IMG/VR virus record: IMGVR_UViG_2568526230_000010
Length of the DNA stretch: 44,797 nucleotides
Direction: 5' to 3' (one strand)
Source: a virus
Taxonomy: Duplodnaviria > Heunggongvirae > Uroviricota > Caudoviricetes
Shown: positions 1,162 to 44,797 of the stretch, in pieces
How positions within the stretch are numbered: the stretch's first letter is position 1
Layout: each line of letters begins with the position of its first letter
Notes under the pieces: generated by a model
The model's database searches: none
What the model was told of the DNA's origin: nothing
The model's input: the letters and a program-made list of their open reading frames with translations, nothing else
Made by a program: the position numbers and the translations under genes

Positions 1162-1260
1162 AATCATTCCCACTCAATTATTTACGGACACCATAACTAA
1201 TTGAGTGATAACATTTTTCCAAAGATGAATTTTTCTCGTACCGTTTTATATACCGTCACC
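1162..1260. other. Candidate att core and P' arm (start of attL/attP identity)
   Basis: First bases shared by the left junction and the inter-copy junction; contains 10-bp inverted repeat CACTCAATTA (1171-1180) / TAATTGAGTG (1198-1207) and the 11-mer ATACCGTCACC (1250-1260) that recurs in the opposite arm at 40954-40964. Confidence 0.35.
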
Positions 1261-1288
1261 GGAAATCAGTACCATGAAAAATGCCATG

Positions 1289-1771
1289 CTATCTGGTCAG
1301 TGTGTCGTACTGTTTTTCGCAGACTCTTCCGGCTTCGGCTGCCCGGTCAGCATACTCTGCCAGTTGTCTGTTTCTCTCGAGAGATTTGCTGAGCACGTCG
1401 GCAAGCAAAACTCCGGTGTCTGCGGCTGACGTCCCAGCGCCGACAATGGCGTTATACTGCCTGAGCTGCTCACGGATGGCAAAGAGTTGTTGCTGCAACC
1501 TGCCAGCGCGAGCGGCAGCATCAAGAGCATCGCTGCGCGCCTGCTCGATCCTCTGCTGCGCTTCACGTTCATTGGTCGCTTTCTCCTGTTCGTAGTGCTG
1601 ACGAACTTTTTCTTCTTCGGCTTTGCGGTCTTCTTTCGCCTGCGCATACCCGGCGTCGTACTGACGACTGCCGTGTGCATTCCAGGCTACAACTCCTGAT
1701 ATGACCAGAACAGCAAGCATCGCCATGATAACCAACTGTTTCCAGTATGCTTTTACGAATGCCCAGATCAT
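1289..1771 (-). CDS. Rz-like inner-membrane spanin
   Basis: 160 aa; N-terminal TM helix then Q/E/R/A-rich coiled coil; last gene of the lysis cassette, overlaps the endolysin stop by 4 nt. Confidence 0.75.
1297..1530 (-). CDS. Rz1-like outer-membrane lipoprotein spanin, embedded in Rz in the +1 frame
   Basis: Internal start gives [12 protein letters not shown]… with lipobox LAGC and a Pro/Ser-rich 77-aa product lying entirely inside the Rz ORF, as in lambda Rz/Rz1. Confidence 0.6.
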   Translation of the reverse strand: MLLMLPLALAGCSNNSLPSVSSSGSITPLSALGRQPQTPEFCLPTCSANLSRETDNWQSMLTGQPKPEESAKNSTTH

Positions 1772-2397
1772 ACCGCTAGCGCCTTACTGGCAGTGATGTA
1801 CCGAGCGCGCCGGTCGTCGATGCCGTTCCTGCCACCATTGATAATCAGAGTTACACGTGCAATATCGCCGGTATACTTCATGCAGCCTTTGCTGGAGAAA
1901 AACCACGCCGCGCTACGAGCTGCATATTCGTCCTGCGCCAGCAGTTCAGGATTCTCCAGCAGGTCCACTTTCAGGCCGTTTCCGCAGTCACGATAGTTAT
2001 TCAAACCGGTAATCTGGATAAGTCCGCGCCCACGGTAATTCCATCCATCGCCTGGGGCATTGTTACCCATGCGTTTGCTGTACACCAGATTTGCGATCGC
2101 GCGCTGGCGCTCGAGTTGCAATGGTGGTTCACCAGCACGGCGACCCAGTGCGTTGGCCTGTCCCTGAGTGAGACGTCCTGCCCGAACAAAGTTAGCCAGT
2201 CCTGTGACACTGTAGTTGAAATTCTCCTGCAACCTGGTGAAGCCACCAGACTCATGCCCGACTTGAGCAATAAACATTGCCTGATCTTCTGCTTTGCTGA
2301 TACCAAACTCTTTCATTGCAGAAGTTATATGCGAGAACCAGCGTGCGGCCAGCGCCTCGCTAATACCAGCAGCTCGCTGGAATTGTTTAATCTCCAT
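1768..2397 (-). CDS. Endolysin, glycoside hydrolase family 19 (chitinase-like lysozyme)
   Basis: 209 aa; motifs [12 protein letters not shown] and [12 protein letters not shown] typical of GH19 phage endolysins; sits between holin-like genes and Rz. Confidence 0.8.
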
Positions 2398-2695
2398 GTT
2401 TAGACCTCGTTATCTTGAAAATCTGAACGACGTTACCGCGAGTTTTAAGAACCGCAGCAAGCATGACAGCGTTGATAATGACCTCAGATAAATCCACAGC
2501 CATTGGCGTGCGTAACCAGATTGCATAGGCGACTCGAACAGGAATACTGGCCGCAGCAACAATCAGGAAATAAGCAAGCCATCCTCCCCACCTTCGATGT
2601 TGAGAGCCGTTACGCCGGAATGTGACAACGCGAATTGCTATGCCAGTGCAAATAACTGCATTGGTGATAAGCAAAAAAAACTCATGCGTTACCAT
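2387..2695 (-). CDS. Holin-like small membrane protein
   Basis: 102 aa with hydrophobic TM segments and a charged C-terminus; overlaps the endolysin start. Confidence 0.5.
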
Positions 2696-3086
2696 CGTCT
2701 TTTCTCCCCGGAATTAACTCGCGTGGATTATCGGAACGGTGATAGAGCCATATACCAATACGCACAGCGACAATTGCTGACACAAATGCGCCTGCAGAGA
2801 AAACAATCCCTTTTTCAAAAGAGTCCTGCGTGATGGTAGGGATCAGGCTGGCTATGCCGATAAGAATTGATGCTGCTGGTTTGTAAAAGAGAAGGCCGCA
2901 AAGAAAGCTGAGCATCGACAGGAGCACCCGGCGACGGATGGGGTACTCTACTGCAGAGGTAACAAAAATTACCGCCCCAGCCAAAGCCCCTAAAGCAACC
3001 TCCGGAGGGACACCTGCAATAACCGCAGCAAGAGAACTAACACTAAGCCACTGATTTGAAGTTTCATTGGTTAGTTGGAATGACAT
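2682..3086 (-). CDS. Holin/antiholin-like multi-TM membrane protein
   Basis: 134 aa, three to four hydrophobic helices; first gene of the lysis cassette, downstream of the tailspike. Confidence 0.5.
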   Translation of the reverse strand: MSFQLTNETSNQWLSVSSLAAVIAGVPPEVALGALAGAVIFVTSAVEYPIRRRVLLSMLSFLCGLLFYKPAASILIGIASLIPTITQDSFEKGIVFSAGAFVSAIVAVRIGIWLYHRSDNPRELIPGRKDDGNA

Positions 3087-3158
3087 AACGAAACCCGTTT
3101 ATTTGCAAACACCCTGCTTCAGGAAAAGTATACCGCGCAACAACACACCATTTACGGT

Positions 3159-5621
3159 TCAATTCCCTGTTAATTGCAAAACTTGCTCTTCCAGCTTTTT
3201 AACCCTGCGTCTCATCATCGCAGATTCCAGAATCAGAGCCTCTTCATAACGGATACCGTAACATTCACCAGCCTCGACGGCTTCGCGTACCAGAACCTTT
3301 GTCTGTATAAGTGGGTAAACTCCTGCAGAATGCTCTTCTTCCGTCACATCCCTGTATTCTGCCGGGGTCTCATTCCACTTGTCATAACAGATAAATGCCA
3401 GTCGTGACACATCTATGCCTTCATTCTGAAATACACTGATAACATGCTGCGCAACTGCACCAAAGTGCCATCTTGCTCCGTCTTTACCTTTCACTTCGAT
3501 CCTGTCAAGGTACTGGTATGAAACCCATTCCACTCTTTCCCATGCGTCCAGTATTTTCTCATCAATAACCTCTGGAGCAGTCTTGAAACGCGCATCGGAC
3601 AGCACCGTAAACGCTGACTGGGTAAATCCCCCCGACCATGCACGACCAGCCAACCCAAGAGAATAAGTATTCGTTGTCGATGGTGTCATGGCTGAATCAG
3701 AAAACTGTATATATTCTGAATTTCCAGTAGATATTCGAATATTTCCATTTATTAGCGACATAGTGCCTTTAGTATTATCACTATTGAATAATTTCAATTG
3801 CGAACTTATACCGCCTCCCACAGCCAGAGATACATCGCCTTCAGCAAGCATTCTGAATTTATCTGCAGAAACAAGCGTCTGGTTAGCAAGGTTAAAATAT
3901 TTAACCCACCATTCAAAACGCCCTGACATAGTCCCAACGTACTGACCAAGCGCAGGGACGTGAACAACATTGCTATTTGTAGTGCCGTCTATACTGGAAA
4001 TACCAGTCACCGCTGATGCAGAACTCAGAATATTATTTCTGTCACCAGGATGTTTAATTTCAACAAAGTTCCTGATACACCCTTCCTCGAAGGTAACCAC
4101 GCCGGAAGAACTATACATGGGGAATATTGACGCATAATTACTGCGTGCAGCATCTAAGAAACGAATGGTTGTAGATGTCTGCAGATCTCCTGATTCATTT
4201 TTCCCATCACACCCAGTCATTAGAATATTACTGGCAATATTATTATTTCCCTGAACGGTGACGCCGTGCGCCTGCTTTGCGTCCGATTCAGAGTAATCAA
4301 CCAGCACATCCGAAATCAGGTTACCAGTCCCCTTGCCAACAACTACTGCGGCGTATTTTGGGTTGTTAGCCATTACACTGCTAATGATATTATTCGTTGG
4401 GGCAGTTTCCGTCTCAGTTCCATTGTAAACAACGTGCTGACACTCTTCACCAATAACATTGCTGACAATGTTATATTTTGCTGCTGTTTTAAGTTCCACT
4501 GCACCAAACTGAGGATAATTTCTGGCTATCACACCATCAATTAGCGTATTTTGCGATGAATCAAAAAGCACACAACCTGCTTTTTTATTATTTGCGAACC
4601 CTAAATACTCTCCTCTTATATCTCTAACAATGTAACCTGACGGAATACCATTATTCGGATAAGCGATCAAGCTAAATCCTGTTCCTCGCGTATTTGTAAA
4701 TCTGATATTTTTAACCGATACATCATGGCCACCTGAAAATGACACCTGGTGTCCCTGCACACTATCATCTGATTTATTTCCCATAATTGTTAGCGTACTA
4801 AGCATGCCACCATCGGGCATGTTAAAAACCAGATGATTACCATCTCTGTCATACTGTTTTATCGTTCCCCCACCTGTTCCGTACAAGCCACAACGTGAAA
4901 GAGAAACTAAAGATGTATTGAATACCCCTTCCGGAACAAAAACACTGCTAAACGAATGTAATGATTTTGTAAAAGCATCCTTGTTATCATTTAAGATTCC
5001 ATTTTGAGCTCCAAAATCCTTAATGCTGACACCATCACGCATCTTATCCTGGAACGTTCTGTATACCGCTCCAGAACCATACTGAATAAACCAACCAAAA
5101 CCACCAATAACTCCGGCGATTGCAGCATCGACATAATTACGCATTGAGCGATTATTTACAGCGTCCTGCTCAAGTGATGGATCGGCAAGGTTAGATATTC
5201 TGTTTTGCTTTGCATCGTAATATTTTGCAAGCAAAGATGGTTTCATCAATGCACGTCTGAACAACCCAAAACATCGCTGGATCAGCATCGTCAGGTAGTC
5301 AAATGCATCCTCATGAACTTCGGGGAAAAATTTTCCCTGATTGCGAAGATCAGTCTCCTGCACCACATCAAGCACACGCTCTATCGTGATTCGCCAGCCA
5401 GCAGCAAGCGGCGACGGAAGAACCACTGCACCGCCACTATAAGTTCCCGCCCCTGTTACCGTATAACCAGCATCCAGCACTAGTTTTGTAACGTTACCGT
5501 TAAGGTCAGACACCTGAACAACCAGGTCGGATTTTTTGAAAATACGGAAGGTATACGGAAATGATGTCGTAACGCCGTTACCTGTGTATTCGTTGTGGTC
5601 AACTTCGGTTGAGACCGTCAT
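3159..5621 (-). CDS. Tailspike with beta-helix and C-terminal intramolecular chaperone (S74-type autoproteolytic) domain
   Basis: 820 aa; conserved podovirus particle-binding N-terminus; long Gly/Asn/Ser/Thr-rich repetitive middle; C-terminal 150 aa ending in a coiled coil resembles endosialidase-type chaperone domains. Confidence 0.8.
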   Translation of the reverse strand: MTVSTEVDHNEYTGNGVTTSFPYTFRIFKKSDLVVQVSDLNGNVTKLVLDAGYTVTGAGTYSGGAVVLPSPLAAGWRITIERVLDVVQETDLRNQGKFFPEVHEDAFDYLTMLIQRCFGLFRRALMKPSLLAKYYDAKQNRISNLADPSLEQDAVNNRSMRNYVDAAIAGVIGGFGWFIQYGSGAVYRTFQDKMRDGVSIKDFGAQNGILNDNKDAFTKSLHSFSSVFVPEGVFNTSLVSLSRCGLYGTGGGTIKQYDRDGNHLVFNMPDGGMLSTLTIMGNKSDDSVQGHQVSFSGGHDVSVKNIRFTNTRGTGFSLIAYPNNGIPSGYIVRDIRGEYLGFANNKKAGCVLFDSSQNTLIDGVIARNYPQFGAVELKTAAKYNIVSNVIGEECQHVVYNGTETETAPTNNIISSVMANNPKYAAVVVGKGTGNLISDVLVDYSESDAKQAHGVTVQGNNNIASNILMTGCDGKNESGDLQTSTTIRFLDAARSNYASIFPMYSSSGVVTFEEGCIRNFVEIKHPGDRNNILSSASAVTGISSIDGTTNSNVVHVPALGQYVGTMSGRFEWWVKYFNLANQTLVSADKFRMLAEGDVSLAVGGGISSQLKLFNSDNTKGTMSLINGNIRISTGNSEYIQFSDSAMTPSTTNTYSLGLAGRAWSGGFTQSAFTVLSDARFKTAPEVIDEKILDAWERVEWVSYQYLDRIEVKGKDGARWHFGAVAQHVISVFQNEGIDVSRLAFICYDKWNETPAEYRDVTEEEHSAGVYPLIQTKVLVREAVEAGECYGIRYEEALILESAMMRRRVKKLEEQVLQLTGN

Positions 5622-5725
5622 GTTAAATCTCCAGATAGTCGCAGCACCCGTTGCGCCGCATATCTGGTTATTCTATTACCTGAAAAACCATATATGGATA
5701 AAAAGACTGTAAATACGAATAGATA

Positions 5726-5740
5726 TTACCTTTCAGGTAA
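5726..5740. promoter_or_regulatory. Operator-like palindrome TTACCTTTCAGGTAA (perfect 6-3-6)
   Basis: Perfect inverted repeat in the divergent region between the tailspike and the accessory island; one of 13 family members. Confidence 0.5.
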
Positions 5741-5777
5741 TTTGCAAAACGTGCTGGATAGCAAACAAATTATTTGC

Positions 5778-5797
5778 TACTGTATAAATATACAGTT
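5778..5797. promoter_or_regulatory. LexA (SOS) box TACTGTATAAATATACAGTT
   Basis: CTGT-N8-ACAG with an AT-rich spacer, matching the enterobacterial SOS-box consensus at 19 of 20 positions; 21 nt upstream of the ATG at 5818. Confidence 0.7.
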
Positions 5798-5817
5798 ATT
5801 GCATGGAGAAGATTAAG

Positions 5818-6075
5818 ATGCAGCAGTATCACTATCCACTGGAAGACGGATTTACCGAAAGGATTCACACGCCGGGAGGCGTCAGGTCACTGGTGGAGGG
5901 ATCGCACTTGATGAAATTACTCCGGGATCTCGATAAGGATGGATTTAATGTCGATGGCCCACTTGCCGAACTGACTGCACTGATTAACTACGTCACCAGC
6001 TCACAGATGTCTATGCAGGATCTGCAAACACATCTCGACTATTGTGCCGAACAATTACGAAAACAAACCAGATAA
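5818..6075 (+). CDS. Small protein homologous to the C-terminal domain of the downstream antirepressor-like protein
   Basis: 85 aa; RBS GGAG 9 nt upstream; IHTPGGVRSLVEGSHLMKLL…MQDLQTHLDY aligns with IHSPSGVLGLTENSLLMNLL…LRDIQTHAEY in the 6889..7608 product. Confidence 0.6.
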   Translation: MQQYHYPLEDGFTERIHTPGGVRSLVEGSHLMKLLRDLDKDGFNVDGPLAELTALINYVTSSQMSMQDLQTHLDYCAEQLRKQTR

Positions 6076-6106
6076 GGTTTGAAATTACCAAATGGAGTGC
6101 TTATAT

Positions 6107-6121
6107 TTACCTTTGCGGTAA
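6107..6121. promoter_or_regulatory. Operator-like palindrome TTACCTTTGCGGTAA inside a hairpin
   Basis: Family member with one mismatch, lying in the loop of the inverted repeat GGAGTGC (6094-6100) / GCACTCC (6131-6137) just after the small-gene stop. Confidence 0.4.
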
Positions 6122-6147
6122 ATTTACATCGCACTCCTCTTGTGCCA

Positions 6148-6240
6148 TAGTAATCGGGCACTGGCAAAATCCAGTGCCGGGATTGGCGTCCCGGATTACT
6201 AGTAGGCGCATACCACGCCAGACGTGGTTTTTTTATGCGT
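6148..6240 (+). ncRNA. Candidate structured small RNA: tRNA-like three-way junction plus intrinsic terminator
   Basis: 8-bp closing stem TAGTAATC/GATTACTA encloses hairpins GGCACTGG-CAAAAT-CCAGTGCC and GGGA-TTGGCG-TCCC, followed by terminator ACCACG-CCAGA-CGTGGT plus T7; no credible ORF on either strand. Confidence 0.4.
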
Positions 6241-6389
6241 ATAGCACAGTCATATCCGAATTATGGTGGGCTGGGCAGGGGCACCGAAAGGTGCGCCGGT
6301 ACCTACTAGGCCGGTACGCCAACCTTGTCCAGTTCACCACCAGCAATTGGCGTTGCGGTGGTGGGTAACTTACTAGTAGAGGTATCGCT

Positions 6390-6896
6390 ATGCCAGGCCA
6401 AAAAATCTCAAACGACGATCTGTATTGGTTAATTTCTAATTCTCCACTCCTTCTTATGCTAAGGCAAGAAAGTGCACCACTGGTCAGTGAATTGATTAGC
6501 TGTAGAAATAGAATGTGGGATGAAGGGGCAGATTTAGATACCAATTTGTTTGATCATCTTATGCAACTAGCAGTCGATAACAAGGCAAAACTACGCTCTG
6601 AATACAACGCTTATCCAGAAATAGCAAAATACCTTAACGCTGAAATACTTGGTGGACCAGGTCAACCAGACCTAAAAACAAAAGATGGTTACCCTGTTGA
6701 GGTGAAGGTAGATACTTTTTCTCCTTCAGCATTAAAACAATTATTAAGGTATATGGATGCTTCTGGCGCAGATTTTGGTTTTGCTTGTGCAAAAACTCTT
6801 TCTGTAAAACTCCCTGAAAACATAAAGTTCATCCAGTTAGATTATAAAGATAATTGCTATTTCGTCGTGAAAGATGGAGGCAATGAAAATGCGTAA
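6390..6896 (+). CDS. Hypothetical protein, AT-rich accessory gene coupled to the antirepressor-like gene
   Basis: 168 aa; RBS GAGGT 5 nt upstream; lower GC than flanking phage genes; its end overlaps the start of the next gene. Confidence 0.55.
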   Translation: MPGQKISNDDLYWLISNSPLLLMLRQESAPLVSELISCRNRMWDEGADLDTNLFDHLMQLAVDNKAKLRSEYNAYPEIAKYLNAEILGGPGQPDLKTKDGYPVEVKVDTFSPSALKQLLRYMDASGADFGFACAKTLSVKLPENIKFIQLDYKDNCYFVVKDGGNENA

Positions 6897-7608
6897 TATA
6901 GCTATTGATAAGTTGCCGATAACAACTCATTGCAACATCCCTGTAATGACTACAGAAATGCTTGCTGATTTGTATGACACAGAACCCAAACTGATTCGTC
7001 AAAACTATCAACGAAATGCAGATCGATTCATTGAGGGAAAACATTGTTTCAAGCTGATAGGCGAAGAATTACGAGCATTTAAGAACGAGTCCTCTCAAAG
7101 AGGTTTGCTTAATATTGCACCAAAAGTAAGTCATCTTTTCTTATGGACCGCTCGCGGTGCAGCACGACATGCGAAAATTCTTGAGACTGAAAAAGCGTGG
7201 GAGGTCTTCGAAAAACTGGAAGATTGCTACTTCGACAGAAAACCCGCAAATGTCAGTGGAGATGTTCGTCTCTCAGGTGGAGCTGATTTATCAAAGGCCA
7301 CTCAGGTAATTGAAAAATTCATGCCCGCCATTATGGAGGCGATCAAGCTGGAAGACAAAAAAGAATACAGTGCCCCACTGAAGCCCGGCTACCGCAGCCT
7401 GATTCATTCTCCGTCTGGTGTTCTCGGCCTGACGGAGAACTCACTGCTGATGAATCTGCTGAACCAGTTACAGGAAGACGGGCACGACGTATCGGGCGCG
7501 GCGGCGGAGCTGACCACCATGTTCTGCTACATCGTCGGTGTGAGCAAATGCCTGCGTGATATCCAGACCCACGCGGAGTACATCAACGACAAGGCAGGGT
7601 TCTTCTGA
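6889..7608 (+). CDS. Antirepressor-like protein with N-terminal ORF6N-type DNA-binding domain
   Basis: N-terminus fits the ORF6N pattern (VMTTEMLADLYDTEPKLIRQNYQRNADRFIEGKHCFKLIGEEL); C-terminal domain is a paralog of the 5818..6075 product. Start placed at the ATG 8 nt after GGAGG; the ORF track starts at 6874. Confidence 0.65.
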   Translation: MRNIAIDKLPITTHCNIPVMTTEMLADLYDTEPKLIRQNYQRNADRFIEGKHCFKLIGEELRAFKNESSQRGLLNIAPKVSHLFLWTARGAARHAKILETEKAWEVFEKLEDCYFDRKPANVSGDVRLSGGADLSKATQVIEKFMPAIMEAIKLEDKKEYSAPLKPGYRSLIHSPSGVLGLTENSLLMNLLNQLQEDGHDVSGAAAELTTMFCYIVGVSKCLRDIQTHAEYINDKAGFF

Positions 7609-7680
7609 CGGGCGGCGGCACATGGATGTGCCTTTAAATAATTCTGTACAGATTGCAGACTGTGGGTGAATAGCGTACTA

Positions 7681-7695
7681 TTACCTCAAGGGTAA
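7681..7695. promoter_or_regulatory. Operator-like palindrome TTACCTCAAGGGTAA
   Basis: Family member with one mismatch, between the antirepressor-like stop and the toxin module; followed by hairpin ACGGATT/AATCCGT. Confidence 0.4.
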
Positions 7696-7755
7696 ACGGA
7701 TTGGTTTCATTTTTATTAATCCGTGTAATGAACTTATGAGATATGAGGTAATGTC

Positions 7756-7935
7756 ATGCGAAACGAAAAATTGCAGATGCGTAGAGCGCAAGCTGCCGCA
7801 AGACGTTCTTTCAATGGAAGCGTAGAGTACGTAAAAGTTACTATGACAAAAGATCACGCAAGTCGCGTATCCCGCGCTTTCTTTGATTCTCGTAACAATA
7901 AGGAAAATTATGAGTTCGTCTGCGTCGCAGAATGA
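7756..7935 (+). CDS. Small basic protein, candidate antitoxin or regulator partner of the YafO-like toxin
   Basis: 59 aa, below the ORF-track cutoff; RBS GAGGT 6 nt upstream; Arg/Lys-rich; its 3' end overlaps the toxin start by 26 nt. No Phd/YefM/YafN-like signature recognised. Confidence 0.35.
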   Translation: MRNEKLQMRRAQAAARRSFNGSVEYVKVTMTKDHASRVSRAFFDSRNNKENYEFVCVAE

Positions 7936-8455
7936 TAAAAATCAAATTGTCAGATATAAGGGTCGAGTGTTGCATACGCAAAATTTCTCGGCCCTTTGTG
8001 CATCTGATCTTGAGCTGAAGAAAGTATCTGATGCCTTTACCCAGTATTGGAAAACGGGATACCATCCATCTCTTGGTAAAGATGCTGCATTTGCTCGTCC
8101 GACAGAAATGCTTAAACTAAATGTCAGGCATACTCATGTCGATAACCAAGACTATATTCCAGAAGATAGTGATAAAAAACACACTGGTAAAAAATCATCT
8201 TGGGATGCATGGAAAAATATAGCGTCTGTACAAGTAAAATGCATACCAACAAGTGATTGCTTTTTAGTTTATTCGGTAAATCACAATCGTGATGCGCTGG
8301 TTATGTTTTTTGTTGACGCAGATGCTCACAACATAACTGAGCAAGAAGAGTTTAAAGAGGAAGCAATCACTATCAGTTATCAATTCTTTGAGAAAACAAA
8401 AACAGAACCAATGCCTTTAGAAGAAGATCTTTTTTCTGATAAATGGAAGGAATAG
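7910..8455 (+). CDS. YafO-family toxin homolog (ribosome-dependent mRNA interferase family) with C-terminal extension
   Basis: Aligns by eye with E. coli YafO as recalled: FTQYWKTGYHPSLGKDAAFARP vs FISYKRDGVLPDIFGRDALYD, LNVRHTHV vs ERVAHIHL, CFLVYSV…ALVMFFV vs AHLVYCQ…AWLLIAI. Start at the ATG with RBS AAGGA; AT-rich; followed by a terminator. Confidence 0.65.
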   Translation: MSSSASQNDKNQIVRYKGRVLHTQNFSALCASDLELKKVSDAFTQYWKTGYHPSLGKDAAFARPTEMLKLNVRHTHVDNQDYIPEDSDKKHTGKKSSWDAWKNIASVQVKCIPTSDCFLVYSVNHNRDALVMFFVDADAHNITEQEEFKEEAITISYQFFEKTKTEPMPLEEDLFSDKWKE

Positions 8456-8475
8456 CCCGCAGCGCGGGCTTTTTT
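8455..8475 (+). terminator. Rho-independent terminator
   Basis: GCCCGC-AGC-GCGGGC followed by T6, at the stop of the toxin gene. Confidence 0.7.
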
Positions 8476-8547
8476 GTGGACGAAACACAAGTCAGTGCTA
8501 CACTCATTGACGCCACATTGAGGTGGCTTATAGATGGAAATTTCACA

Positions 8548-8709
8548 ATGAAAAAAGCATTTGCTGCACTGTTCGTTTTGTTGTCTCTGGTAGCTTCAAC
8601 TCAGGCCTTTGCCGGTCGTTGTCAGCACGACAGCGACACTGCTGCTGACGGCTCCCGCTGCGGTGGGCGTTCTGCGGATTCCCGCCCGGGCGGCGGTGGC
8701 ATTCGTTAA
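8548..8709 (+). CDS. Small exported peptide (signal peptide plus about 31-aa Cys/Gly/Arg-rich mature part)
   Basis: MKKAFAALFVLLSLVASTQAFA signal peptide; possible promoter TTGACG-N16-TATAGA upstream; GC-rich, so real coding is uncertain. Confidence 0.35.
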   Translation: MKKAFAALFVLLSLVASTQAFAGRCQHDSDTAADGSRCGGRSADSRPGGGGIR

Positions 8710-8731
8710 AAACAAGGCCGCGAAAGCGGCC
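8706..8731 (-). terminator. Terminator closing the minus-strand late operon
   Basis: GGCCGC-GAAA-GCGGCC (GNRA loop) followed on the minus strand by TTGTTTTT, 15 nt after the stop of the 8746..9306 gene. Confidence 0.6.
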
Positions 8732-8745
8732 TGTGACATGTCACA

Positions 8746-9306
8746 CTACATTGATATATGATTCATAAAGTAGCTTAAAGATTTACTTCCCAGAAAAGAA
8801 ATTTCTTTTCCTGGATATGTCGCAATAATTGAGCATGACTTATCCCCGTTAGAGGTAACAAATCCTGAATAACCTACTTGTTCTTTACCATTTTGTTGCT
8901 TGGCTAAAAAGTAGAGGTAGCTTATCTTTTTGCCCTCTGGGTAAAACTCTGCCAAACCAGTATCGGTGATTGAATATTTTATTCTCCCGCCTTGAGTAAC
9001 GTTTTCCATCTCAAGTTTAGCTATGTCTTTTCTGTTGTATTCAGCATTGATTTTCCTTTCGAAATCAATGTTGTTTTCAAATGAGTAGGAAGCAACAGTC
9101 TGAATAGATGGGAACACGTTTATCTGGATGCCTCCACAGTCGGCACAGGTATAAAGGTATGAATCAGATGGAATCCCCATAAAAGAAAACTGAGTTACCT
9201 TAAATTTATCGCTATCTCCAAAGTATTGAAGTTCGCATTTAACATTTTGCCCTGCAAAAGAAAATGCAGACATCAATATTGAAACAAAAAATATAATTGC
9301 CTTCAT
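8746..9306 (-). CDS. Exported protein of unknown function, AT-rich moron at the end of the late operon
   Basis: 186 aa; signal peptide MKAIIFFVSILMSAFSFA; markedly lower GC than the upstream ejection-protein gene; start 3 nt after the preceding stop. Confidence 0.6.
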   Translation of the reverse strand: MKAIIFFVSILMSAFSFAGQNVKCELQYFGDSDKFKVTQFSFMGIPSDSYLYTCADCGGIQINVFPSIQTVASYSFENNIDFERKINAEYNRKDIAKLEMENVTQGGRIKYSITDTGLAEFYPEGKKISYLYFLAKQQNGKEQVGYSGFVTSNGDKSCSIIATYPGKEISFLGSKSLSYFMNHISM

Positions 9307-9308
9307 TA

Positions 9309-11861
9309 TTATTTACCTAGCATGAACTGCGATGGTGGGATCAGAAAGTCGTTCCCCTGCTCACGCTCAACACGGCGCTGATAACGCTCAAGAGAGCCTG
9401 GGTCAAGGGCATCTTGTATCCGGTTCAATATTAAACCATTCATCGCCGTACGAAGCCAGAACACGTTGAGGAATGGCGTATTGTCAAGTGCCGTGCGATA
9501 CCAGTCACCCAAATCTGCATCCCCTCTCGTGGTCTGCTGGAGCAGCGTGATAATGCTGTCAGCGTTCGATGCTGCTGGCCCCATTAGCGACGTAACCGGC
9601 CCGGCCCCCATGCGGTTGACCTCACCAAACATGAAGTCACCCAAGATGCCAAGACCGCCCCCCTGAGATGCGGCTGCGAGAAACGTCTTGGCATCTGCCG
9701 GGCGTGGTGTTTGCCCTTTCAGCATGAGTTTTGACTGCATGGAGATATAACCAAACATAGTCGCCCAGACAAAGAGGTTTGCAGCACCAAGGAAAGCCCC
9801 CTTCCCGTTACGTAGCAGCGCATTCGTCAGCGATCCGGTTTTCGACTCACCAAGCCCAGCAGGAATATAACCACGCCCGAATACTTCGCGTCCTAGTACG
9901 TTCTGCATGAAGCTTGCAGTGAACGATTTGTACTGACCAGCGAATCGTATTGCTTCCCCAGCCACCGTTCCTGGCACCGTGCCCATCTTCATAAACGCCT
10001 GCGTGCGATCGCCAGGCTCTGACATGGCGATATTCAGGCGGTCAAGGATGTAGCCGCGCAACTGCCCTTCCAATTGATCGCGTGCGTCAGCGATAGCGCG
10101 CTGCGTTGGTTTGATCCCCTTACTCTCTACATAACCGGCAATCACTTCGTCAGGCACGCCGCGGATGCCGCTGGTCGTCATGAACTTACGACCTTCGCTA
10201 TCGGCCATGTCCATGTTGCGAAAAATTTCCCACTCACGTTCGCCAATACCGTGCAGATCCAGCACGCGTCGCAGGTCTTCCGGTAGCCGCGCATGAGACT
10301 GGTCAGCATTCTTTGCAAGCCAGTTGGTTATCATCATGGCGTTGCTGTTGCGACCGCTCTCGGTCCAGAAGTTCATGAGGTTGTACTTAAAGAAAAGCTG
10401 CTGCGCGCGACCAAGCTTTCCATTCAGCGTGTCATCACCAGATATGCGCCGGATGATTTCCTGCGTCATGGAGTCGGAATAAACTCCGATAGAGGAAAGG
10501 ATCTCTTTCTGCTCCGCGCTGTTGTAACGCGTGAAGCGGCCTCTCATAGCACCAAGCAACGCCTGCATAAAATTCTGCCCTTGGTAGCGCATCTCGGTAG
10601 CGGCGATAGGCACGTCGTTAAACGATGAGATTACCGCGCCACCAAGTTGGCTCATACGCAACCAGCCGCGTACAGCCGCCGACGCATTGGCCCAGCCTAC
10701 GCTGCCAGGAATATTTAGCGAGCCGTCAACCTGCGGCATTACGGTACGGTTAATGCGACGCACCTTCGTCATGTAGTCAGCCAACGCTGCCGGTCTTCCG
10801 GATTTGCTGATATCTTCAGCAATGGCGTCCGTCAGGTACTTAAACATGTTCTGTGGGTTAGTGCCCAGTACGCGCATCATGCCCGTTGTGCGGGCAGCGC
10901 TGTTTAAGCCACCAAACAGCGCTTCTCGCAGGCTGCCGGTGCCGAATTGCTGGTTGTACTCGTGCCACGAGATACCATCTTTGAAGTGCAAAATTCGCTC
11001 TTGGCTGGCGCGTTTAGCTGCGTTCGCCGATCCCTTAAAGCCATTCATCCAATCGGGCTTTTCAGATGTAAGATGCACGCCGGAAGCCAGCCCGTTATAA
11101 ATGTTACGCATGAACTGCTCGCGGTCAGCCACGCCGTCAAAAGTGCGCTCATCAAGGCGCGGGAGAATAGCATTTCGCCATGCTTCATAACCTGCGGCGC
11201 GGATCTTCATGATGTCGTGTGACTGGCGCACTATATAGCCCGGCTCTTTGCGTATCCATGCCCCGGCGCGGTTCTCATCAATGCGCGCAGTTTCCTGCCA
11301 TTTCATGATGATTTGTGCAGCGCTTACGGATTGCTTTGTCATACCGTCAGTTGACTGCCCGCGCCCTATGCGCCACATTGCATCGGCAATTTCCCGGTCA
11401 TTGCTGCCGCTGGCGATGAATTGCACCAGCCCGGCACGGTCAAAATCGTAGTTGATACCGGAATGATACTTGCCGCGCAGTTGCGCCACCTCCGAAGATA
11501 CCGACCGGCGGGCGCCGGTACGCGCATCGTTGCGGCCAACCAGCATTGCTTCAAGCCCGATATCCGGGCGGTCTTTCCAGATAGTACGAAGCTCTCTAAG
11601 TCGTTGTGCGGCAATACGGGCGTTGATTGCCTTATTGCGAGCCTCAATCTGTTTTGCCAGCATATCGGCATTGCTCAGTTCTTCCGCTGCGCGCATCGCG
11701 GCCTCTTCCAGAGACAGCGCCTCATTGGTCGCCAGAATTCGCCTAGTGGTGTCGTTCATGTCACGCACCAGCGACTCCATCTCATCGGAAGAAAGCTCGC
11801 GACCAGCGGCAGCATTTACACTGCGCTCGCACTGCGTCAAAAATTCGTTTGCTGCCATCAC
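9309..11861 (-). CDS. Large internal virion/ejection protein
   Basis: 850 aa; start overlaps the upstream stop by 4 nt; part of the coupled block of large proteins typical of podovirus ejection proteins. Confidence 0.6.
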   Translation of the reverse strand: MMAANEFLTQCERSVNAAAGRELSSDEMESLVRDMNDTTRRILATNEALSLEEAAMRAAEELSNADMLAKQIEARNKAINARIAAQRLRELRTIWKDRPDIGLEAMLVGRNDARTGARRSVSSEVAQLRGKYHSGINYDFDRAGLVQFIASGSNDREIADAMWRIGRGQSTDGMTKQSVSAAQIIMKWQETARIDENRAGAWIRKEPGYIVRQSHDIMKIRAAGYEAWRNAILPRLDERTFDGVADREQFMRNIYNGLASGVHLTSEKPDWMNGFKGSANAAKRASQERILHFKDGISWHEYNQQFGTGSLREALFGGLNSAARTTGMMRVLGTNPQNMFKYLTDAIAEDISKSGRPAALADYMTKVRRINRTVMPQVDGSLNIPGSVGWANASAAVRGWLRMSQLGGAVISSFNDVPIAATEMRYQGQNFMQALLGAMRGRFTRYNSAEQKEILSSIGVYSDSMTQEIIRRISGDDTLNGKLGRAQQLFFKYNLMNFWTESGRNSNAMMITNWLAKNADQSHARLPEDLRRVLDLHGIGEREWEIFRNMDMADSEGRKFMTTSGIRGVPDEVIAGYVESKGIKPTQRAIADARDQLEGQLRGYILDRLNIAMSEPGDRTQAFMKMGTVPGTVAGEAIRFAGQYKSFTASFMQNVLGREVFGRGYIPAGLGESKTGSLTNALLRNGKGAFLGAANLFVWATMFGYISMQSKLMLKGQTPRPADAKTFLAAASQGGGLGILGDFMFGEVNRMGAGPVTSLMGPAASNADSIITLLQQTTRGDADLGDWYRTALDNTPFLNVFWLRTAMNGLILNRIQDALDPGSLERYQRRVEREQGNDFLIPPSQFMLGK

Positions 11862-25474: not shown

Positions 25475-25551
25475 GTGGCATTAGCTCAGTTGGACAGAGC
25501 AACCGCCTTCTAAGCGGTTGGTCGCAGGTTCGAATCCTGCATGCCACGCCA
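25475..25551 (+). tRNA. tRNA-Arg (anticodon UCU), phage-encoded
   Basis: Cloverleaf folded by hand: acceptor GTGGCAT/ATGCCAC, D-stem GCTC/GAGC, anticodon stem ACCGC/GCGGT with loop CTTCTAA, T-arm GCAGG-TTCGAAT-CCTGC, discriminator G and encoded CCA. Acceptor stem differs from host argU as recalled. Confidence 0.85.
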
Positions 25552-35214: not shown

Positions 35215-35799
35215 ATGAAAAGTATCCAGGACGTCCGCAGGCAAAATCTCAACGACTTGATCGACCGTGAATTCAATGGTGTTCAGACGCGGATGGCAGA
35301 AAAACTTGGAACTCAGGCAAATCTGGTAAACCGCTGGGCTCTTGGCAAGAAGGTTATCGGCGACCAGGTTGCGCGAAAAATTGAAGCTGCCGCCAATAAA
35401 CCACGTAACTGGCTTGATATCGATCGCTCGCTTTCTCAGGAAGGTTTTCAGCCTGTCGGCCCAAGCGACATTGGTCAGCTGGCGGCTCACAACCTGGAAC
35501 GCTGGATGAGCGAAAGCCGCGACCTTTCAACTCAGGGAAAACTTCACCGCGCATCCGGCGTCGCCCAGGTGACAATCAGCCGCCTGTTAAACAATGAGGT
35601 CAGTGTTTCCATTTCCACCCTGGAGAATGTTGCATCAGCATTCGGGCGTCACGGCTATGAATTACTGATTCACCCGCACGACCCTGCGACCATCAACTAT
35701 GACCGCTCGCGCTACGCATTGTTACCCGAAACCGAGAAAGCAAAGATCGAAAGTTACATTGAATTTGTCATCAACCAGAACGAAAAAAACAAACAATAA
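35215..35799 (+). CDS. Prophage repressor candidate with two HTH (XRE-type) motifs and no S24 peptidase domain
   Basis: 194 aa; HTH-like segments near residues 20-45 and 105-135; no Ala-Gly cleavage site or Ser/Lys peptidase domain seen; own terminator downstream. Confidence 0.6.
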   Translation: MKSIQDVRRQNLNDLIDREFNGVQTRMAEKLGTQANLVNRWALGKKVIGDQVARKIEAAANKPRNWLDIDRSLSQEGFQPVGPSDIGQLAAHNLERWMSESRDLSTQGKLHRASGVAQVTISRLLNNEVSVSISTLENVASAFGRHGYELLIHPHDPATINYDRSRYALLPETEKAKIESYIEFVINQNEKNKQ

Positions 35800-41087: not shown

Positions 41088-41214
41088 AATCATTCCCACT
41101 CAATTATTTACGGACACCATAACTAATTGAGTGATAACATTTTTCCAAAGATGAATTTTTCTCGTACCGTTTTATATACCGTCACCGGAAATCAGTACCA
41201 TGAAAAATGCCATG

Positions 41215-41697
41215 CTATCTGGTCAGTGTGTCGTACTGTTTTTCGCAGACTCTTCCGGCTTCGGCTGCCCGGTCAGCATACTCTGCCAGTTGTCTGTTTC
41301 TCTCGAGAGATTTGCTGAGCACGTCGGCAAGCAAAACTCCGGTGTCTGCGGCTGACGTCCCAGCGCCGACAATGGCGTTATACTGCCTGAGCTGCTCACG
41401 GATGGCAAAGAGTTGTTGCTGCAACCTGCCAGCGCGAGCGGCAGCATCAAGAGCATCGCTGCGCGCCTGCTCGATCCTCTGCTGCGCTTCACGTTCATTG
41501 GTCGCTTTCTCCTGTTCGTAGTGCTGACGAACTTTTTCTTCTTCGGCTTTGCGGTCTTCTTTCGCCTGCGCATACCCGGCGTCGTACTGACGACTGCCGT
41601 GTGCATTCCAGGCTACAACTCCTGATATGACCAGAACAGCAAGCATCGCCATGATAACCAACTGTTTCCAGTATGCTTTTACGAATGCCCAGATCAT
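41215..41697 (-). CDS. Rz-like spanin (copy 2)
   Basis: Protein identical to the 1289..1771 product. Confidence 0.75.
41223..41456 (-). CDS. Embedded Rz1-like lipoprotein spanin (copy 2)
   Basis: Identical to the 1297..1530 ORF. Confidence 0.55.
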   Translation of the reverse strand: MLLMLPLALAGCSNNSLPSVSSSGSITPLSALGRQPQTPEFCLPTCSANLSRETDNWQSMLTGQPKPEESAKNSTTH

Positions 41698-42323
41698 ACC
41701 GCTAGCGCCTTACTGGCAGTGATGTACCGAGCGCGCCGGTCGTCGATGCCGTTCCTGCCACCATTGATAATCAGAGTTACACGTGCAATATCGCCGGTAT
41801 ACTTCATGCAGCCTTTGCTGGAGAAAAACCACGCCGCGCTACGAGCTGCATATTCGTCCTGCGCCAGCAGTTCAGGATTCTCCAGCAGGTCCACTTTCAG
41901 GCCGTTTCCGCAGTCACGATAGTTATTCAAACCGGTAATCTGGATAAGTCCGCGCCCACGGTAATTCCATCCATCGCCTGGGGCATTGTTACCCATGCGT
42001 TTGCTGTACACCAGATTTGCGATCGCGCGCTGGCGCTCGAGTTGCAATGGTGGTTCACCAGCACGGCGACCCAGTGCGTTGGCCTGTCCCTGAGTGAGAC
42101 GTCCTGCCCGAACAAAGTTAGCCAGTCCTGTGACACTGTAGTTGAAATTCTCCTGCAACCTGGTGAAGCCACCAGACTCATGCCCGACTTGAGCAATAAA
42201 CATTGCCTGATCTTCTGCTTTGCTGATACCAAACTCTTTCATTGCAGAAGTTATATGCGAGAACCAGCGTGCGGCCAGCGCCTCGCTAATACCAGCAGCT
42301 CGCTGGAATTGTTTAATCTCCAT
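41694..42323 (-). CDS. GH19 endolysin (copy 2)
   Basis: Protein identical to the 1768..2397 product. Confidence 0.8.
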
Positions 42324-42621
42324 GTTTAGACCTCGTTATCTTGAAAATCTGAACGACGTTACCGCGAGTTTTAAGAACCGCAGCAAGCATGACAGCGTTG
42401 ATAATGACCTCAGATAAATCCACAGCCATTGGCGTGCGTAACCAGATTGCATAGGCGACTCGAACAGGAATACTGGCCGCAGCAACAATCAGGAAATAAG
42501 CAAGCCATCCTCCCCACCTTCGATGTTGAGAGCCGTTACGCCGGAATGTGACAACGCGAATTGCTATGCCAGTGCAAATAACTGCATTGGTGATAAGCAA
42601 AAAAAACTCATGCGTTACCAT
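42313..42621 (-). CDS. Holin-like membrane protein (copy 2)
   Basis: Identical to 2387..2695. Confidence 0.5.
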
Positions 42622-43012
42622 CGTCTTTTCTCCCCGGAATTAACTCGCGTGGATTATCGGAACGGTGATAGAGCCATATACCAATACGCACAGCGACAAT
42701 TGCTGACACAAATGCGCCTGCAGAGAAAACAATCCCTTTTTCAAAAGAGTCCTGCGTGATGGTAGGGATCAGGCTGGCTATGCCGATAAGAATTGATGCT
42801 GCTGGTTTGTAAAAGAGAAGGCCGCAAAGAAAGCTGAGCATCGACAGGAGCACCCGGCGACGGATGGGGTACTCTACTGCAGAGGTAACAAAAATTACCG
42901 CCCCAGCCAAAGCCCCTAAAGCAACCTCCGGAGGGACACCTGCAATAACCGCAGCAAGAGAACTAACACTAAGCCACTGATTTGAAGTTTCATTGGTTAG
43001 TTGGAATGACAT
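42608..43012 (-). CDS. Holin/antiholin-like membrane protein (copy 2)
   Basis: Identical to 2682..3086. Confidence 0.5.
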   Translation of the reverse strand: MSFQLTNETSNQWLSVSSLAAVIAGVPPEVALGALAGAVIFVTSAVEYPIRRRVLLSMLSFLCGLLFYKPAASILIGIASLIPTITQDSFEKGIVFSAGAFVSAIVAVRIGIWLYHRSDNPRELIPGRKDDGNA

Positions 43013-43084
43013 AACGAAACCCGTTTATTTGCAAACACCCTGCTTCAGGAAAAGTATACCGCGCAACAACACACCATTTACGGT

Positions 43085-44797
43085 TCAATTCCCTGTTAAT
43101 TGCAAAACTTGCTCTTCCAGCTTTTTAACCCTGCGTCTCATCATCGCAGATTCCAGAATCAGAGCCTCTTCATAACGGATACCGTAACATTCACCAGCCT
43201 CGACGGCTTCGCGTACCAGAACCTTTGTCTGTATAAGTGGGTAAACTCCTGCAGAATGCTCTTCTTCCGTCACATCCCTGTATTCTGCCGGGGTCTCATT
43301 CCACTTGTCATAACAGATAAATGCCAGTCGTGACACATCTATGCCTTCATTCTGAAATACACTGATAACATGCTGCGCAACTGCACCAAAGTGCCATCTT
43401 GCTCCGTCTTTACCTTTCACTTCGATCCTGTCAAGGTACTGGTATGAAACCCATTCCACTCTTTCCCATGCGTCCAGTATTTTCTCATCAATAACCTCTG
43501 GAGCAGTCTTGAAACGCGCATCGGACAGCACCGTAAACGCTGACTGGGTAAATCCCCCCGACCATGCACGACCAGCCAACCCAAGAGAATAAGTATTCGT
43601 TGTCGATGGTGTCATGGCTGAATCAGAAAACTGTATATATTCTGAATTTCCAGTAGATATTCGAATATTTCCATTTATTAGCGACATAGTGCCTTTAGTA
43701 TTATCACTATTGAATAATTTCAATTGCGAACTTATACCGCCTCCCACAGCCAGAGATACATCGCCTTCAGCAAGCATTCTGAATTTATCTGCAGAAACAA
43801 GCGTCTGGTTAGCAAGGTTAAAATATTTAACCCACCATTCAAAACGCCCTGACATAGTCCCAACGTACTGACCAAGCGCAGGGACGTGAACAACATTGCT
43901 ATTTGTAGTGCCGTCTATACTGGAAATACCAGTCACCGCTGATGCAGAACTCAGAATATTATTTCTGTCACCAGGATGTTTAATTTCAACAAAGTTCCTG
44001 ATACACCCTTCCTCGAAGGTAACCACGCCGGAAGAACTATACATGGGGAATATTGACGCATAATTACTGCGTGCAGCATCTAAGAAACGAATGGTTGTAG
44101 ATGTCTGCAGATCTCCTGATTCATTTTTCCCATCACACCCAGTCATTAGAATATTACTGGCAATATTATTATTTCCCTGAACGGTGACGCCGTGCGCCTG
44201 CTTTGCGTCCGATTCAGAGTAATCAACCAGCACATCCGAAATCAGGTTACCAGTCCCCTTGCCAACAACTACTGCGGCGTATTTTGGGTTGTTAGCCATT
44301 ACACTGCTAATGATATTATTCGTTGGGGCAGTTTCCGTCTCAGTTCCATTGTAAACAACGTGCTGACACTCTTCACCAATAACATTGCTGACAATGTTAT
44401 ATTTTGCTGCTGTTTTAAGTTCCACTGCACCAAACTGAGGATAATTTCTGGCTATCACACCATCAATTAGCGTATTTTGCGATGAATCAAAAAGCACACA
44501 ACCTGCTTTTTTATTATTTGCGAACCCTAAATACTCTCCTCTTATATCTCTAACAATGTAACCTGACGGAATACCATTATTCGGATAAGCGATCAAGCTA
44601 AATCCTGTTCCTCGCGTATTTGTAAATCTGATATTTTTAACCGATACATCATGGCCACCTGAAAATGACACCTGGTGTCCCTGCACACTATCATCTGATT
44701 TATTTCCCATAATTGTTAGCGTACTAAGCATGCCACCATCGGGCATGTTAAAAACCAGATGATTACCATCTCTGTCATACTGTTTTATCGTTCCCCC
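43085..44797 (-). CDS. Tailspike (copy 2), partial: N-terminal part lies beyond the window end
   Basis: Identical to the C-terminal 570 codons of 3159..5621; the reading frame stays open to the last base of the window. Confidence 0.75.
   Translation of the reverse strand, partial: GGTIKQYDRDGNHLVFNMPDGGMLSTLTIMGNKSDDSVQGHQVSFSGGHDVSVKNIRFTNTRGTGFSLIAYPNNGIPSGYIVRDIRGEYLGFANNKKAGCVLFDSSQNTLIDGVIARNYPQFGAVELKTAAKYNIVSNVIGEECQHVVYNGTETETAPTNNIISSVMANNPKYAAVVVGKGTGNLISDVLVDYSESDAKQAHGVTVQGNNNIASNILMTGCDGKNESGDLQTSTTIRFLDAARSNYASIFPMYSSSGVVTFEEGCIRNFVEIKHPGDRNNILSSASAVTGISSIDGTTNSNVVHVPALGQYVGTMSGRFEWWVKYFNLANQTLVSADKFRMLAEGDVSLAVGGGISSQLKLFNSDNTKGTMSLINGNIRISTGNSEYIQFSDSAMTPSTTNTYSLGLAGRAWSGGFTQSAFTVLSDARFKTAPEVIDEKILDAWERVEWVSYQYLDRIEVKGKDGARWHFGAVAQHVISVFQNEGIDVSRLAFICYDKWNETPAEYRDVTEEEHSAGVYPLIQTKVLVREAVEAGECYGIRYEEALILESAMMRRRVKKLEEQVLQLTGN

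Follow-up and report, generated by a model that had tools for sequence, protein, structure and literature searches.

The window analyzed here is a 44,797-nucleotide (nt) stretch of DNA deposited as IMG/VR virus record IMGVR_UViG_2568526230_000010, a segment of an Escherichia coli chromosome that carries a prophage of the Uetakevirus type (epsilon15/phiV10/TL-2011b-like). Our subject is the block of plus-strand genes at 5726–8709, bordered on the left by the tailspike gene (3159–5621) and on the right by a virion structural gene (9309–11861), both on the minus strand. From left to right, the block holds ant, a small gene behind a LexA box of the SOS response; an isrK-family RNA followed by a C4 antisense RNA; an open reading frame (ORF) of 168 amino acids (aa), ORF168; the ORF6N-domain gene ant2; and a cargo slot with ORF59, a YafO-like gene and a small signal-peptide gene. 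An earlier reading of the window, made from its letters and translations without database searches (the sequence-only reading), had already listed the plus-strand elements between the tailspike and late genes, and all of them are present. Its structured RNA corresponds to the isrK/a1b1 element together with the C4 antisense RNA, as matched in Rfam; its AT-rich ORF is ORF168 (in a stretch of 37–39% G+C), which overlaps the ORF6N gene ant2 by 8 nt; and its small basic ORF upstream of a YafO-like gene is ORF59 (isoelectric point, pI, 10.0). One correction concerns the ORF at the right end of the interval, for which a 53-aa signal-peptide protein (8548–8709) is the best reading. Our preferred reading, to which we give a probability of roughly 0.7, takes 5726–8709 as an immI-like region for antirepressor control in a Uetakevirus prophage integrated at guaA, composed of three independently promoted units.

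The LexA-boxed ant gene and the prophage repressor

At the left end of the block, the LexA box TACTGTATAAATATACAGTT (5778–5797) agrees with the consensus at 18 of 20 positions. It is the sole near-consensus site in the window, with none recovered in 100 shuffles, and it is kept upstream of orthologous ant genes in all 10 aligned loci, which span six genera; the orthologous box is also present in the Salmonella phage SPC32H. The distance from the box to the start codon of ant (5818–6075, plus strand), which encodes a small antirepressor of 85 aa, is 21 nt. Although the reading frame opens at 5803, ATG 5818 is the likely start, because GGAGAAG lies 7 nt upstream of it and relatives encode 86 aa. 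The small Ant matches PDB chain 5D50_E, 'Anti-repressor protein', from the SPC32H complex structure, with an expect value (E) of 4.4e-47, and with the annotated ant gene of SPC32H it shares 88% identity. The prophage repressor that would be its target, Rep (194 aa; 35215–35799, plus strand), matches 5D50_A, 'Repressor' (SPC32H Rep), with E 4e-42. Pfam assigns HTH_3 as its only domain, and the Peptidase_S24 autocleavage domain was not found among its Pfam matches, as the sequence-only reading had supposed for the repressor.

SPC32H displays the same arrangement of palindrome, LexA box and ant, adjoining the tailspike gene, and shares with the window the non-cleavable Rep; however, it has ant alone, whereas the window adds about 2.6 kilobases with isrK, C4, ORF168, ant2 and cargo. 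For Salmonella prophages, a review (PMC7380047, citing Kim and Ryu 2013) describes how LexA self-cleavage leads to synthesis of Ant, which inactivates the repressor by protein–protein contact. By sequence comparison, the true SOS-gated antirepressor of the region is the small LexA-boxed gene, an orthologue of the published SPC32H Rep/Ant/LexA system. The LexA-gated antirepressor of the sequence-only reading is therefore present, but it is this small gene itself, 88% identical to SPC32H Ant, and not the ORF6N protein. In the mechanism that we propose, the LexA box would control the 85-aa Ant, Ant would bind and inactivate the non-cleavable Rep, and DNA damage would thus induce the prophage. In SPC32H, LexA-gated inactivation of Rep by Ant has reportedly been shown by experiment; for the present prophage, we infer it from orthology with that system.

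Antisense RNAs, the second antirepressor and ORF168

The second unit begins with a promoter recovered by promoter scan (6123–6151, plus strand), consisting of a -35 hexamer TTTACA (6123–6128), a 17-nt spacer and a -10 hexamer CATAGT (6146–6151) with an upstream TG. Both hexamers are invariant over 10 divergent loci, and the start expected from this promoter, about 6158, is the first position of the Rfam isrK model. That model (RF01394) matches 6158–6234 with 68.1 bits against a gathering score of 50; the element, on the plus strand, contains b1 (6183–6189), a1 (6199–6206) and an intrinsic terminator (6212–6228 plus a T run, ending at 6234). The model c4-a1b1 ('a1, b1 targets of C4') matches 6145–6197 with 45.1 bits, just below its gathering score of 46.7. 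The C4 antisense RNA (RF01695, clan CL00128) lies at 6259–6344 on the same strand, where the full model is covered at 76.7 bits against a gathering score of 45. Its exposed elements are a2, CCUACUAG (6302–6309), in a hairpin loop, and b2, ACGCCAA (6316–6322), which is single-stranded. The mRNA target sites follow at 6347–6379 (plus strand), with b' at 6347–6353 and a' at 6373–6379 as exact 7-nt complements of b2 and a2. Hence the CUACUAG of a2 has exact complements at 6199, in isrK, and at 6373, and the ACGCCAA of b2 at 6183, in isrK, and at 6347. The a' site reaches the Shine-Dalgarno sequence GAGG (6379–6382) of ORF168.

Across 11 loci, a2 occurs in five variants (CUACUAG, CCUUUUAG, CGUUUAG, CCUUUGUAG and CCACUUAG) and b2 in four (ACGCCAA, AGACCAA, GUUCCAA and GUGCAAA), and both target copies change along with them; under the exact 7-mer test, only the b pair passed in two of the loci, L009 and L011. 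This three-way covariation of C4, isrK and mRNA provides strong comparative evidence for the proposed pairing scheme. The downstream target site ends 7–10 nt ahead of the start codon in all related loci, and isrK and C4 are present in 10 of 10 Uetakevirus-like loci with a second antirepressor gene. We built the pairing argument on exact complements and covariation because whole-RNA duplex folding discriminates poorly, with 7 to 15 of 300 shuffles being equally good. As observations in their own right, the a-type target (6198–6206 and 6371–6379) contains a self-complementary core, ACUAGU, and when the folding of the read-through RNA is predicted (z -3.5), the copy in isrK pairs with the one near the ribosome-binding site, a pairing that resembles the translationally inactive 'structure A' of Gifsy-1.

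In the mechanism that we envisage for this unit, the isrK transcript would end at its own terminator, and read-through would yield both C4 RNA and the ORF168-ant2 mRNA. Pairing of a2 and b2 with a' and b' over the ribosome-binding site of ORF168 would then block ORF168 translation, and the block would reach Ant2 translation too, through the 8-nt gene overlap. The a1 and b1 sites of isrK would act as decoy copies of the C4 targets and could titrate C4. Because the terminator scan found no plus-strand terminator between the ant stop codon (6075) and isrK, transcripts of the SOS-driven ant gene should run into isrK, which may couple the SOS and antisense units by adding C4 decoy and helping to release Ant2.

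Two known systems resemble this unit. In P1 immI, c4 RNA represses Ant synthesis (PMC8546580). With the P1/P7 immI arrangement (c4, icd, ant1/ant2), the window has in common a C4-family RNA with a1/b1 upstream and a'/b' downstream over the ribosome-binding site of the first ORF, a first ORF that overlaps the antirepressor gene, a repressor-type site at the promoter, and specificity loops that vary among relatives. In contrast to P1, the upstream element of the window also matches isrK and ends in a terminator, the antirepressor combines ORF6N with an SPC32H-type Ant domain, and the first ORF encodes a 168-aa nuclease-fold protein rather than Icd, which in P1 has 73 aa. In Gifsy-1, isrK RNA pairs with the leader of the read-through isrK-orf45-anrP mRNA and thereby switches on AnrP translation by way of a coupled upstream ORF (PMC4825925). 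Shared with the window are an isrK-family RNA that has a promoter of its own and a leaky terminator, the complementarity of isrK to the downstream leader, and a read-through mRNA whose upstream ORF is coupled to an antirepressor; however, where Gifsy-1 has the region treated as orf45, the window has a C4 RNA in its own right and then a genuine gene of 168 aa, and the downstream AntQ antiterminator of Gifsy-1 has no counterpart in 5726–8709.

The gene that this unit would ultimately control, ant2 (6889–7608, plus strand; 239 aa), has a conserved start, ATG 6889, with the same 8-nt overlap in relatives. Its product carries an N-terminal ORF6N domain (Pfam, 67.8 bits) and a C-terminal Ant domain (nt about 7360–7590): residues 163–239, counted from ATG 6874, match 5D50_E with E 5.5e-14, this domain is 42% identical to the small Ant of the window, and the protein matches phrog_1760, 'anti-repressor', at 1e-97. 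Judged by these matches, the ORF6N protein is a second antirepressor with a C-terminal domain paralogous to the small Ant. The sequence-only reading, which called the ORF6N gene antirepressor-like, needs correcting as to its control: the protein carries the Ant domain, and the gene lies behind the isrK/C4 cassette with a conserved promoter of its own. Ant2 would provide a second route to Rep inactivation, either on infection of a C4-free cell or once C4 is titrated, because it has the Rep-binding domain of Ant behind ORF6N.

The Ant domain recurs in relatives. In TL-2011b, the Bro-N protein at the ant2 position ends in the same Ant C-terminal domain, and the 3' end of the P22-type ant shows 97% DNA identity to the Ant-domain end of ant2 in the window; a phiV10 protein ends in a truncated version, and SPC32H and epsilon15 have one copy each. 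From 7333 onward the window shares 98% identity with TL-2011b, but over 6365–7332 the two are unrelated, which therefore places a recombination joint inside ant2. In these alignments, a low-GC cassette of ORF168 and the ORF6N domain stands in place of the Bro-N domain, and a single Rep-binding domain has been shuffled among three N-terminal domains, each with a different control system. In phage ZX5, over-expression of the Bro-N protein of the ant2 position lowered lysogeny (PMC9782041). Separately, TL-2011b (L001) carries at 4994–6178, on the opposite strand, a third antirepressor, an Ant of the P22 type accompanied by an Arc-like repressor and a match to sar RNA. This counterpart of P22 immI (ant, arc, mnt, sar RNA) stands in TL-2011b beside the same YafO-like cassette as in the window; the P22-type module is absent from the window, where a 186-aa minus-strand signal-peptide ORF takes its place.

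ORF168 (6390–6896, plus strand) is the first translated gene of the putative C4-gated operon. It has no match in Pfam, NCBIfam or PADLOC, and its close relatives amount to 11 clusters among 5.8 billion proteins. In every context found, comprising Enterobacter, Salmonella, two Klebsiella species and a metagenomic contig (L016), it lies between C4 and the ORF6N antirepressor gene. A tblastn search of the INPHARED phage collection retrieved nothing; the ORF168/ORF6N variant is known only from prophages, and among 5426 complete E. coli genomes, 22 carry its exact form. When 1.84 billion representatives were searched with a profile, 307 remote homologues were recovered, and in an alignment of 37 sequences, reaching down to 22% identity, E71, D94, E104, K106 and Q117 are invariant and P93 is nearly so, giving a PD...E-x-K signature. 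A first structure model, based on an 8-sequence alignment, reached a predicted local distance difference test score (pLDDT) of 44 and was set aside; a second, which included the remote homologues, reached 92.5. The latter model has the alpha-beta-beta-beta-alpha-beta core fold of the PD-(D/E)xK superfamily. Foldseek against a viral library returned only weak restriction-endonuclease-like matches, and at the sequence level ORF168 weakly matches Cas4, and its remote homologues weakly match NucS_C. ORF168 shares the E...D...E-x-K signature with the cleavage domains of NucS, AF1548 and type IIS restriction endonucleases, but differs from them in a unique N-terminal helical domain and in its genetic tie to antirepressor-like genes.

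This tie extends to distant homologues in other phage lineages, where the gene directly downstream encodes a Bro-N (L018) or a pRha/ORF6C protein (L020, L021) and Rfam matches to C4 or sRNA-Xcc1 lie beside the homologues. By model and context alike, ORF168 is predicted to be a nuclease; its family is unannotated and recurs in association with antirepressor-like genes. Alongside, we observed that the sRNA-Xcc1 matches fall between the ORF168 homologue and the following gene (L018, 2447–2538; L020, 4652–4736; L021, 2034–2118) and that those in L018 and L020 show complementarity to the start region of that gene; at these three loci, sRNA-Xcc1 may be a C4-like antisense regulator. We also recovered a 331-aa protein, P0140, in which an N-terminal Bro-N domain (23.6 bits, just under the cut-off of 25.6) is joined to an ORF168-type nuclease motif (residues 237–306), a fusion which suggests that ORF168-type and Bro-N products act together.

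The dispersed palindrome and the cargo slot

The palindrome TTACC-N5-GGTAA, with the extended consensus TTACCT-N3-AGGTAA, has 16 sites in the window, 10 of which are perfect, where 0.66 would be expected; they lie at 5494, 5726, 6107, 7681, 8930, 25138, 28265, 28283, 32796, 32858, 34760, 35097, 35145, 35857, 35919 and 40940. Almost all sites are intergenic and head transcription units. Three belong to the studied region. The first, TTACCTTTCAGGTAA (5726–5740), a putative Rep operator, lies upstream of ant, between ant and the divergent tailspike gene; it is invariant in 10 related loci and is also found in SPC32H. The second, TTACCTTTGCGGTAA (6107–6121), holds the same place next to the isrK promoter in every related locus, and the third, TTACCTCAAGGGTAA (7681–7695), overlaps the candidate promoter of the cargo. 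All three are kept in all related loci, ahead of whatever cargo is present. Outside the region, the interval between rep and a divergent cro-like gene contains two copies that are perfect or nearly so (35097 and 35145) and, between these, a degenerate third; further sites occur after rep, in several early intergenic regions and upstream of int. P1 has 22 dispersed C1 operators (PMC8546580). By analogy with these, the palindrome is probably a dispersed operator of Rep. If so, all three units would also be under Rep control, and the toxin-like pair of the cargo slot would be silent in the lysogen and come on when Rep is inactivated or upon infection, its link to SOS being indirect.

The cargo unit has a candidate promoter (7653–7695 with the palindrome, plus strand) with -35 TTGCAG (7653–7658), a 17-nt spacer and -10 TACTAT (7676–7681), hexamers that were read by eye and, with 8 of 12 matches, fall under the scan threshold. 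In six other loci, too, the palindrome covers the -10 of a sigma-70-like promoter or comes just after it (7/7 in all). Separate from this, the stretch between the candidate promoter and ORF59 holds an inverted repeat, ACGGATT(15 nt)AATCCGT (7696–7726); it is found only in the window and TL-2011b and is an insertion relative to five other loci. ORF59 (7756–7935, plus strand; phrog_6685) overlaps by 26 nt the YafO-like gene (7910–8455, plus strand), whose product, of 181 aa and pI 5.8, matches Pfam YafO_toxin (PF13957), as do 23 of 23 members of its family at E<=0.01. A strong intrinsic terminator at 8454–8470 (plus strand), with a 7-base-pair stem, 6 G-C pairs and a T run, closes the cassette. 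ORF59 lies upstream of every YafO-like homologue examined; its own homologues form 32 clusters, all of 50–86 aa and without Pfam domains. Its best Pfam match, DUF6955, is below threshold (E 0.041), and it gave no alignment with YafN and no profile match among solved structures; against the same structures, the YafO-like profile yielded one non-significant match (E 0.48). RefSeq names the YafO-like protein a YafO family toxin. In the RefSeq hits H62–H69, only 'YafO family toxin' is listed, and the conserved 59-aa partner ORF appears to go without annotation.

Compared with E. coli yafN-yafO, the cassette has in common the YafO_toxin domain, the blocks G-x-x-P-x-x-G-(K/R)-D and V-x-H-x-H, and a small overlapping upstream gene. 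It differs in that the protein has 181 aa against 132 aa in E. coli YafO, with an insertion and extensions at both ends, in a partner unrelated to YafN, in a phage palindrome at its promoter, and in that no LexA box was found near it (7600–7760). The pair occurs together in prophages of TL-2011b, K. aerogenes, Serratia, Cedecea and Hafnia, and also in Pectobacterium, in a different, non-Uetakevirus-like element; it is found behind Bro-N genes without ORF168/ORF6N, and in other relatives the slot holds unrelated genes. These comparisons indicate that ORF59 and the YafO-like gene are a separate mobile cargo cassette with its own candidate promoter and no LexA box. Nor is the combination unusual for this phage group, as had been claimed, given that TL-2011b has the same pair at 98% identity and 61 of 5426 complete E. 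coli genomes contain it. Of the profile searches that had been proposed, those for ORF6N (67.8 bits) and, marginally, YafO_toxin gave domains, whereas PADLOC-DB 2.0 had no match for ORF168, ORF59 or the YafO-like protein, and only the ORF6N domain matched a candidate defence profile, PDC-S05. Beyond the cassette, the slot contains the gene of the 53-aa protein (8548–8709, plus strand), which matches phrog_14503, 'membrane associated protein', at 2e-40 and is named 'putative transmembrane anchored protein' in TL-2011b. A G+C-rich hairpin (8715–8732), scored as a terminator for the minus-strand gene, closes the plus-strand block, and a further cargo gene, the 186-aa signal-peptide ORF (8746–9306, minus strand; phrog_11983), follows in a stretch of about 38% G+C.

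Competing readings and meaning of the region

The reading of the region as three independently promoted units has to be weighed against the model of the sequence-only reading, which wires everything from 5726 to 8709 to SOS as a single unit: LexA would gate an ORF6N antirepressor and a YafO toxin alike, coupling induction to abortive infection. Such a unit would accommodate the LexA box at the 5' end of the block, the co-orientation of all its genes, the failure of the scan to detect a strong plus-strand terminator between ant2 and ORF59, and the parallel with E. coli, where yafNO sits in the dinB operon, which is LexA-regulated. However, the isrK terminator (6212–6234) and C4 control intervene between the LexA box and the ORF6N gene, and the YafO-like cassette has its own promoter and palindrome without a LexA box, occurs without ORF168/ORF6N and in a different element, gives way to unrelated cargo in the same slot of relatives, and lacks a PADLOC match. 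We consider this proposal very improbable; as a complete description, we reject a single LexA-driven operon because of the terminator inside it, the conserved promoters at two further places and the separate distribution of the cassettes. A link between induction and the toxin-like pair is possible through the repressor operator instead of LexA. This in turn depends on the palindrome, which might be the site of another regulator (Cro-like or an activator) or a module-boundary sequence promoting cassette exchange: it flanks every exchangeable cassette, unrelated cargo included, it accompanies the YafO-like cassette in Pectobacterium (L013), where the context is different, and at isrK it abuts the -35 rather than covering it. 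We judge such alternatives unlikely in view of the copies between rep and the divergent cro-like gene, the presence of the palindrome at most early transcription units and at int, and the resemblance of the overall pattern to the C1 operators of P1.

Two further alternatives concern individual genes. ORF59 and the YafO-like gene may constitute a conventional type II toxin–antitoxin pair that is expressed in the lysogen and either stabilizes the prophage or aborts infection by other phages, the palindrome being unrelated to its control. The overlap of the always co-occurring small ORF with the larger gene, the YafO_toxin match above cut-off, the RefSeq name and the travel of the pair between elements as a unit all suit this account, which we hold possible yet still the less probable one. 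However, neither YafN nor any solved antitoxin resembles ORF59, and the charges run opposite to those of YafN/YafO, with an 'antitoxin' of pI 10.0 and a 'toxin' of pI 5.8. In addition, in 7 of 7 loci the palindrome lies over or after the -10, the pair matches no defence profile, and the YafO score is marginal. ORF168, for its part, could be functionless in itself, a leader ORF whose translation opens the ant2 start, like orf45 of Gifsy-1 or, in part, icd of P1. Its position between C4 and the antirepressor gene with the 8-nt overlap fits such a role, and in Gifsy-1 anrP translation needs that of orf45, whose amino-acid sequence is reportedly poorly conserved (PMC4825925). Against this, ORF168 has about 300 homologues with invariant E, D, E-x-K and Q residues, its model is a confident nuclease fold, and its distant homologues adjoin Bro-N or pRha/ORF6C genes in other phage lineages, with one Bro-N fusion; a mere leader role is, in our view, highly doubtful.

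Several observations weigh against the three-unit antirepressor reading itself. The Rep protein of the window is only about 45% identical to SPC32H Rep, and the Ant2 C-terminal domain only about 40% identical to the crystallized Ant, so that its target could differ. No -35/-10 hexamers could be placed for ant, either by promoter scan or by eye. The palindrome at isrK abuts the -35, and a protein bound there could activate rather than repress. An operator over the cargo promoter would be unexpected if the cargo protects lysogens. The YafO_toxin match is marginal (26.3 bits against a cut-off of 25), and hhalign of the YafO-like profile against E. coli YafO, used as a single-sequence template, gave a probability of 6%; since the pairwise local alignment of the two proteins is weak as well, it is the Pfam profile alone that carries the assignment to YafO. 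Finally, the binding of LexA, that of Rep to the palindrome, the processing of C4 and the binding of Ant2 to Rep are all steps that we infer.

The wider context of the prophage is consistent with its assignment. The closest DNA to 5600–8800 comes from TL-2011b, phiv142-3, ZX5 and phiV10, each with a coverage of at most 67%. An attachment (att) core ATTGAGTGGGAATGATT, the sequence of which has been published (PMC9782041), occurs at 1162–1178 and again at 41088–41104, a spacing of 39,926 base pairs (bp), and 3,710 nt after each copy are identical (1162–4871 and 41088–44797). Because the core is doubled with identical sequence after each copy, the window is a tandem lysogen with one complete 39,926-bp prophage followed, head to tail, by the start of a second identical copy. 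The flank (1–1071) contains a glycine-zipper lipoprotein gene and a DUF5384 gene, which we take to resemble yfgH and yfgI, and the integration site fits the reported 3' end of guaA. A tRNA-Arg gene (anticodon TCT) was also observed inside the prophage, at 25475–25551 (plus strand), between the portal and terminase genes.

An SOS-gated antirepressor that inactivates a non-cleavable repressor is already established for this phage genus, and the region is a combination of known kinds; its novelty lies in the nuclease-like family, in the sharing of the Ant domain and in the probable operator that the toxin-like cassette carries. Tentatively, these may be joined in the proposal that ORF168 founds a PD-(D/E)xK family integral to antisense-RNA-gated, immI-type antirepressor operons and that a Rep-type operator makes the YafO-like, translation-targeting ribonuclease an induction-time function. 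If this holds, the ribonuclease would not be a lysogen-protecting toxin–antitoxin function. If ORF168 is active, loss of C4 control through infection, induction or titration by isrK would lead to nuclease and antirepressor being made together, and the nuclease might cut host or rival-phage DNA, or nick DNA to feed the SOS/LexA–Ant arm as a positive feedback. The RefSeq label of type II toxin for the YafO-like gene warrants caution, because there is no YafN partner and no SOS box and the gene appears to be under repressor control. Bro-N, pRha and ORF6N proteins are very common in prophages and poorly understood, and a C4-controlled, unannotated nuclease-fold protein is here linked to these 'antirepressor-like' proteins in several lineages. 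At least five co-varying C4/isrK specificity types predict a heteroimmunity code among these prophages. In the E. coli and Klebsiella members of the genus, a second antirepressor, and in TL-2011b a third, would act through the same Rep-binding domain, each with a different sensor (LexA, C4/isrK antisense RNA or Arc/sar), which would make them a compact natural case of inputs converging on one repressor.

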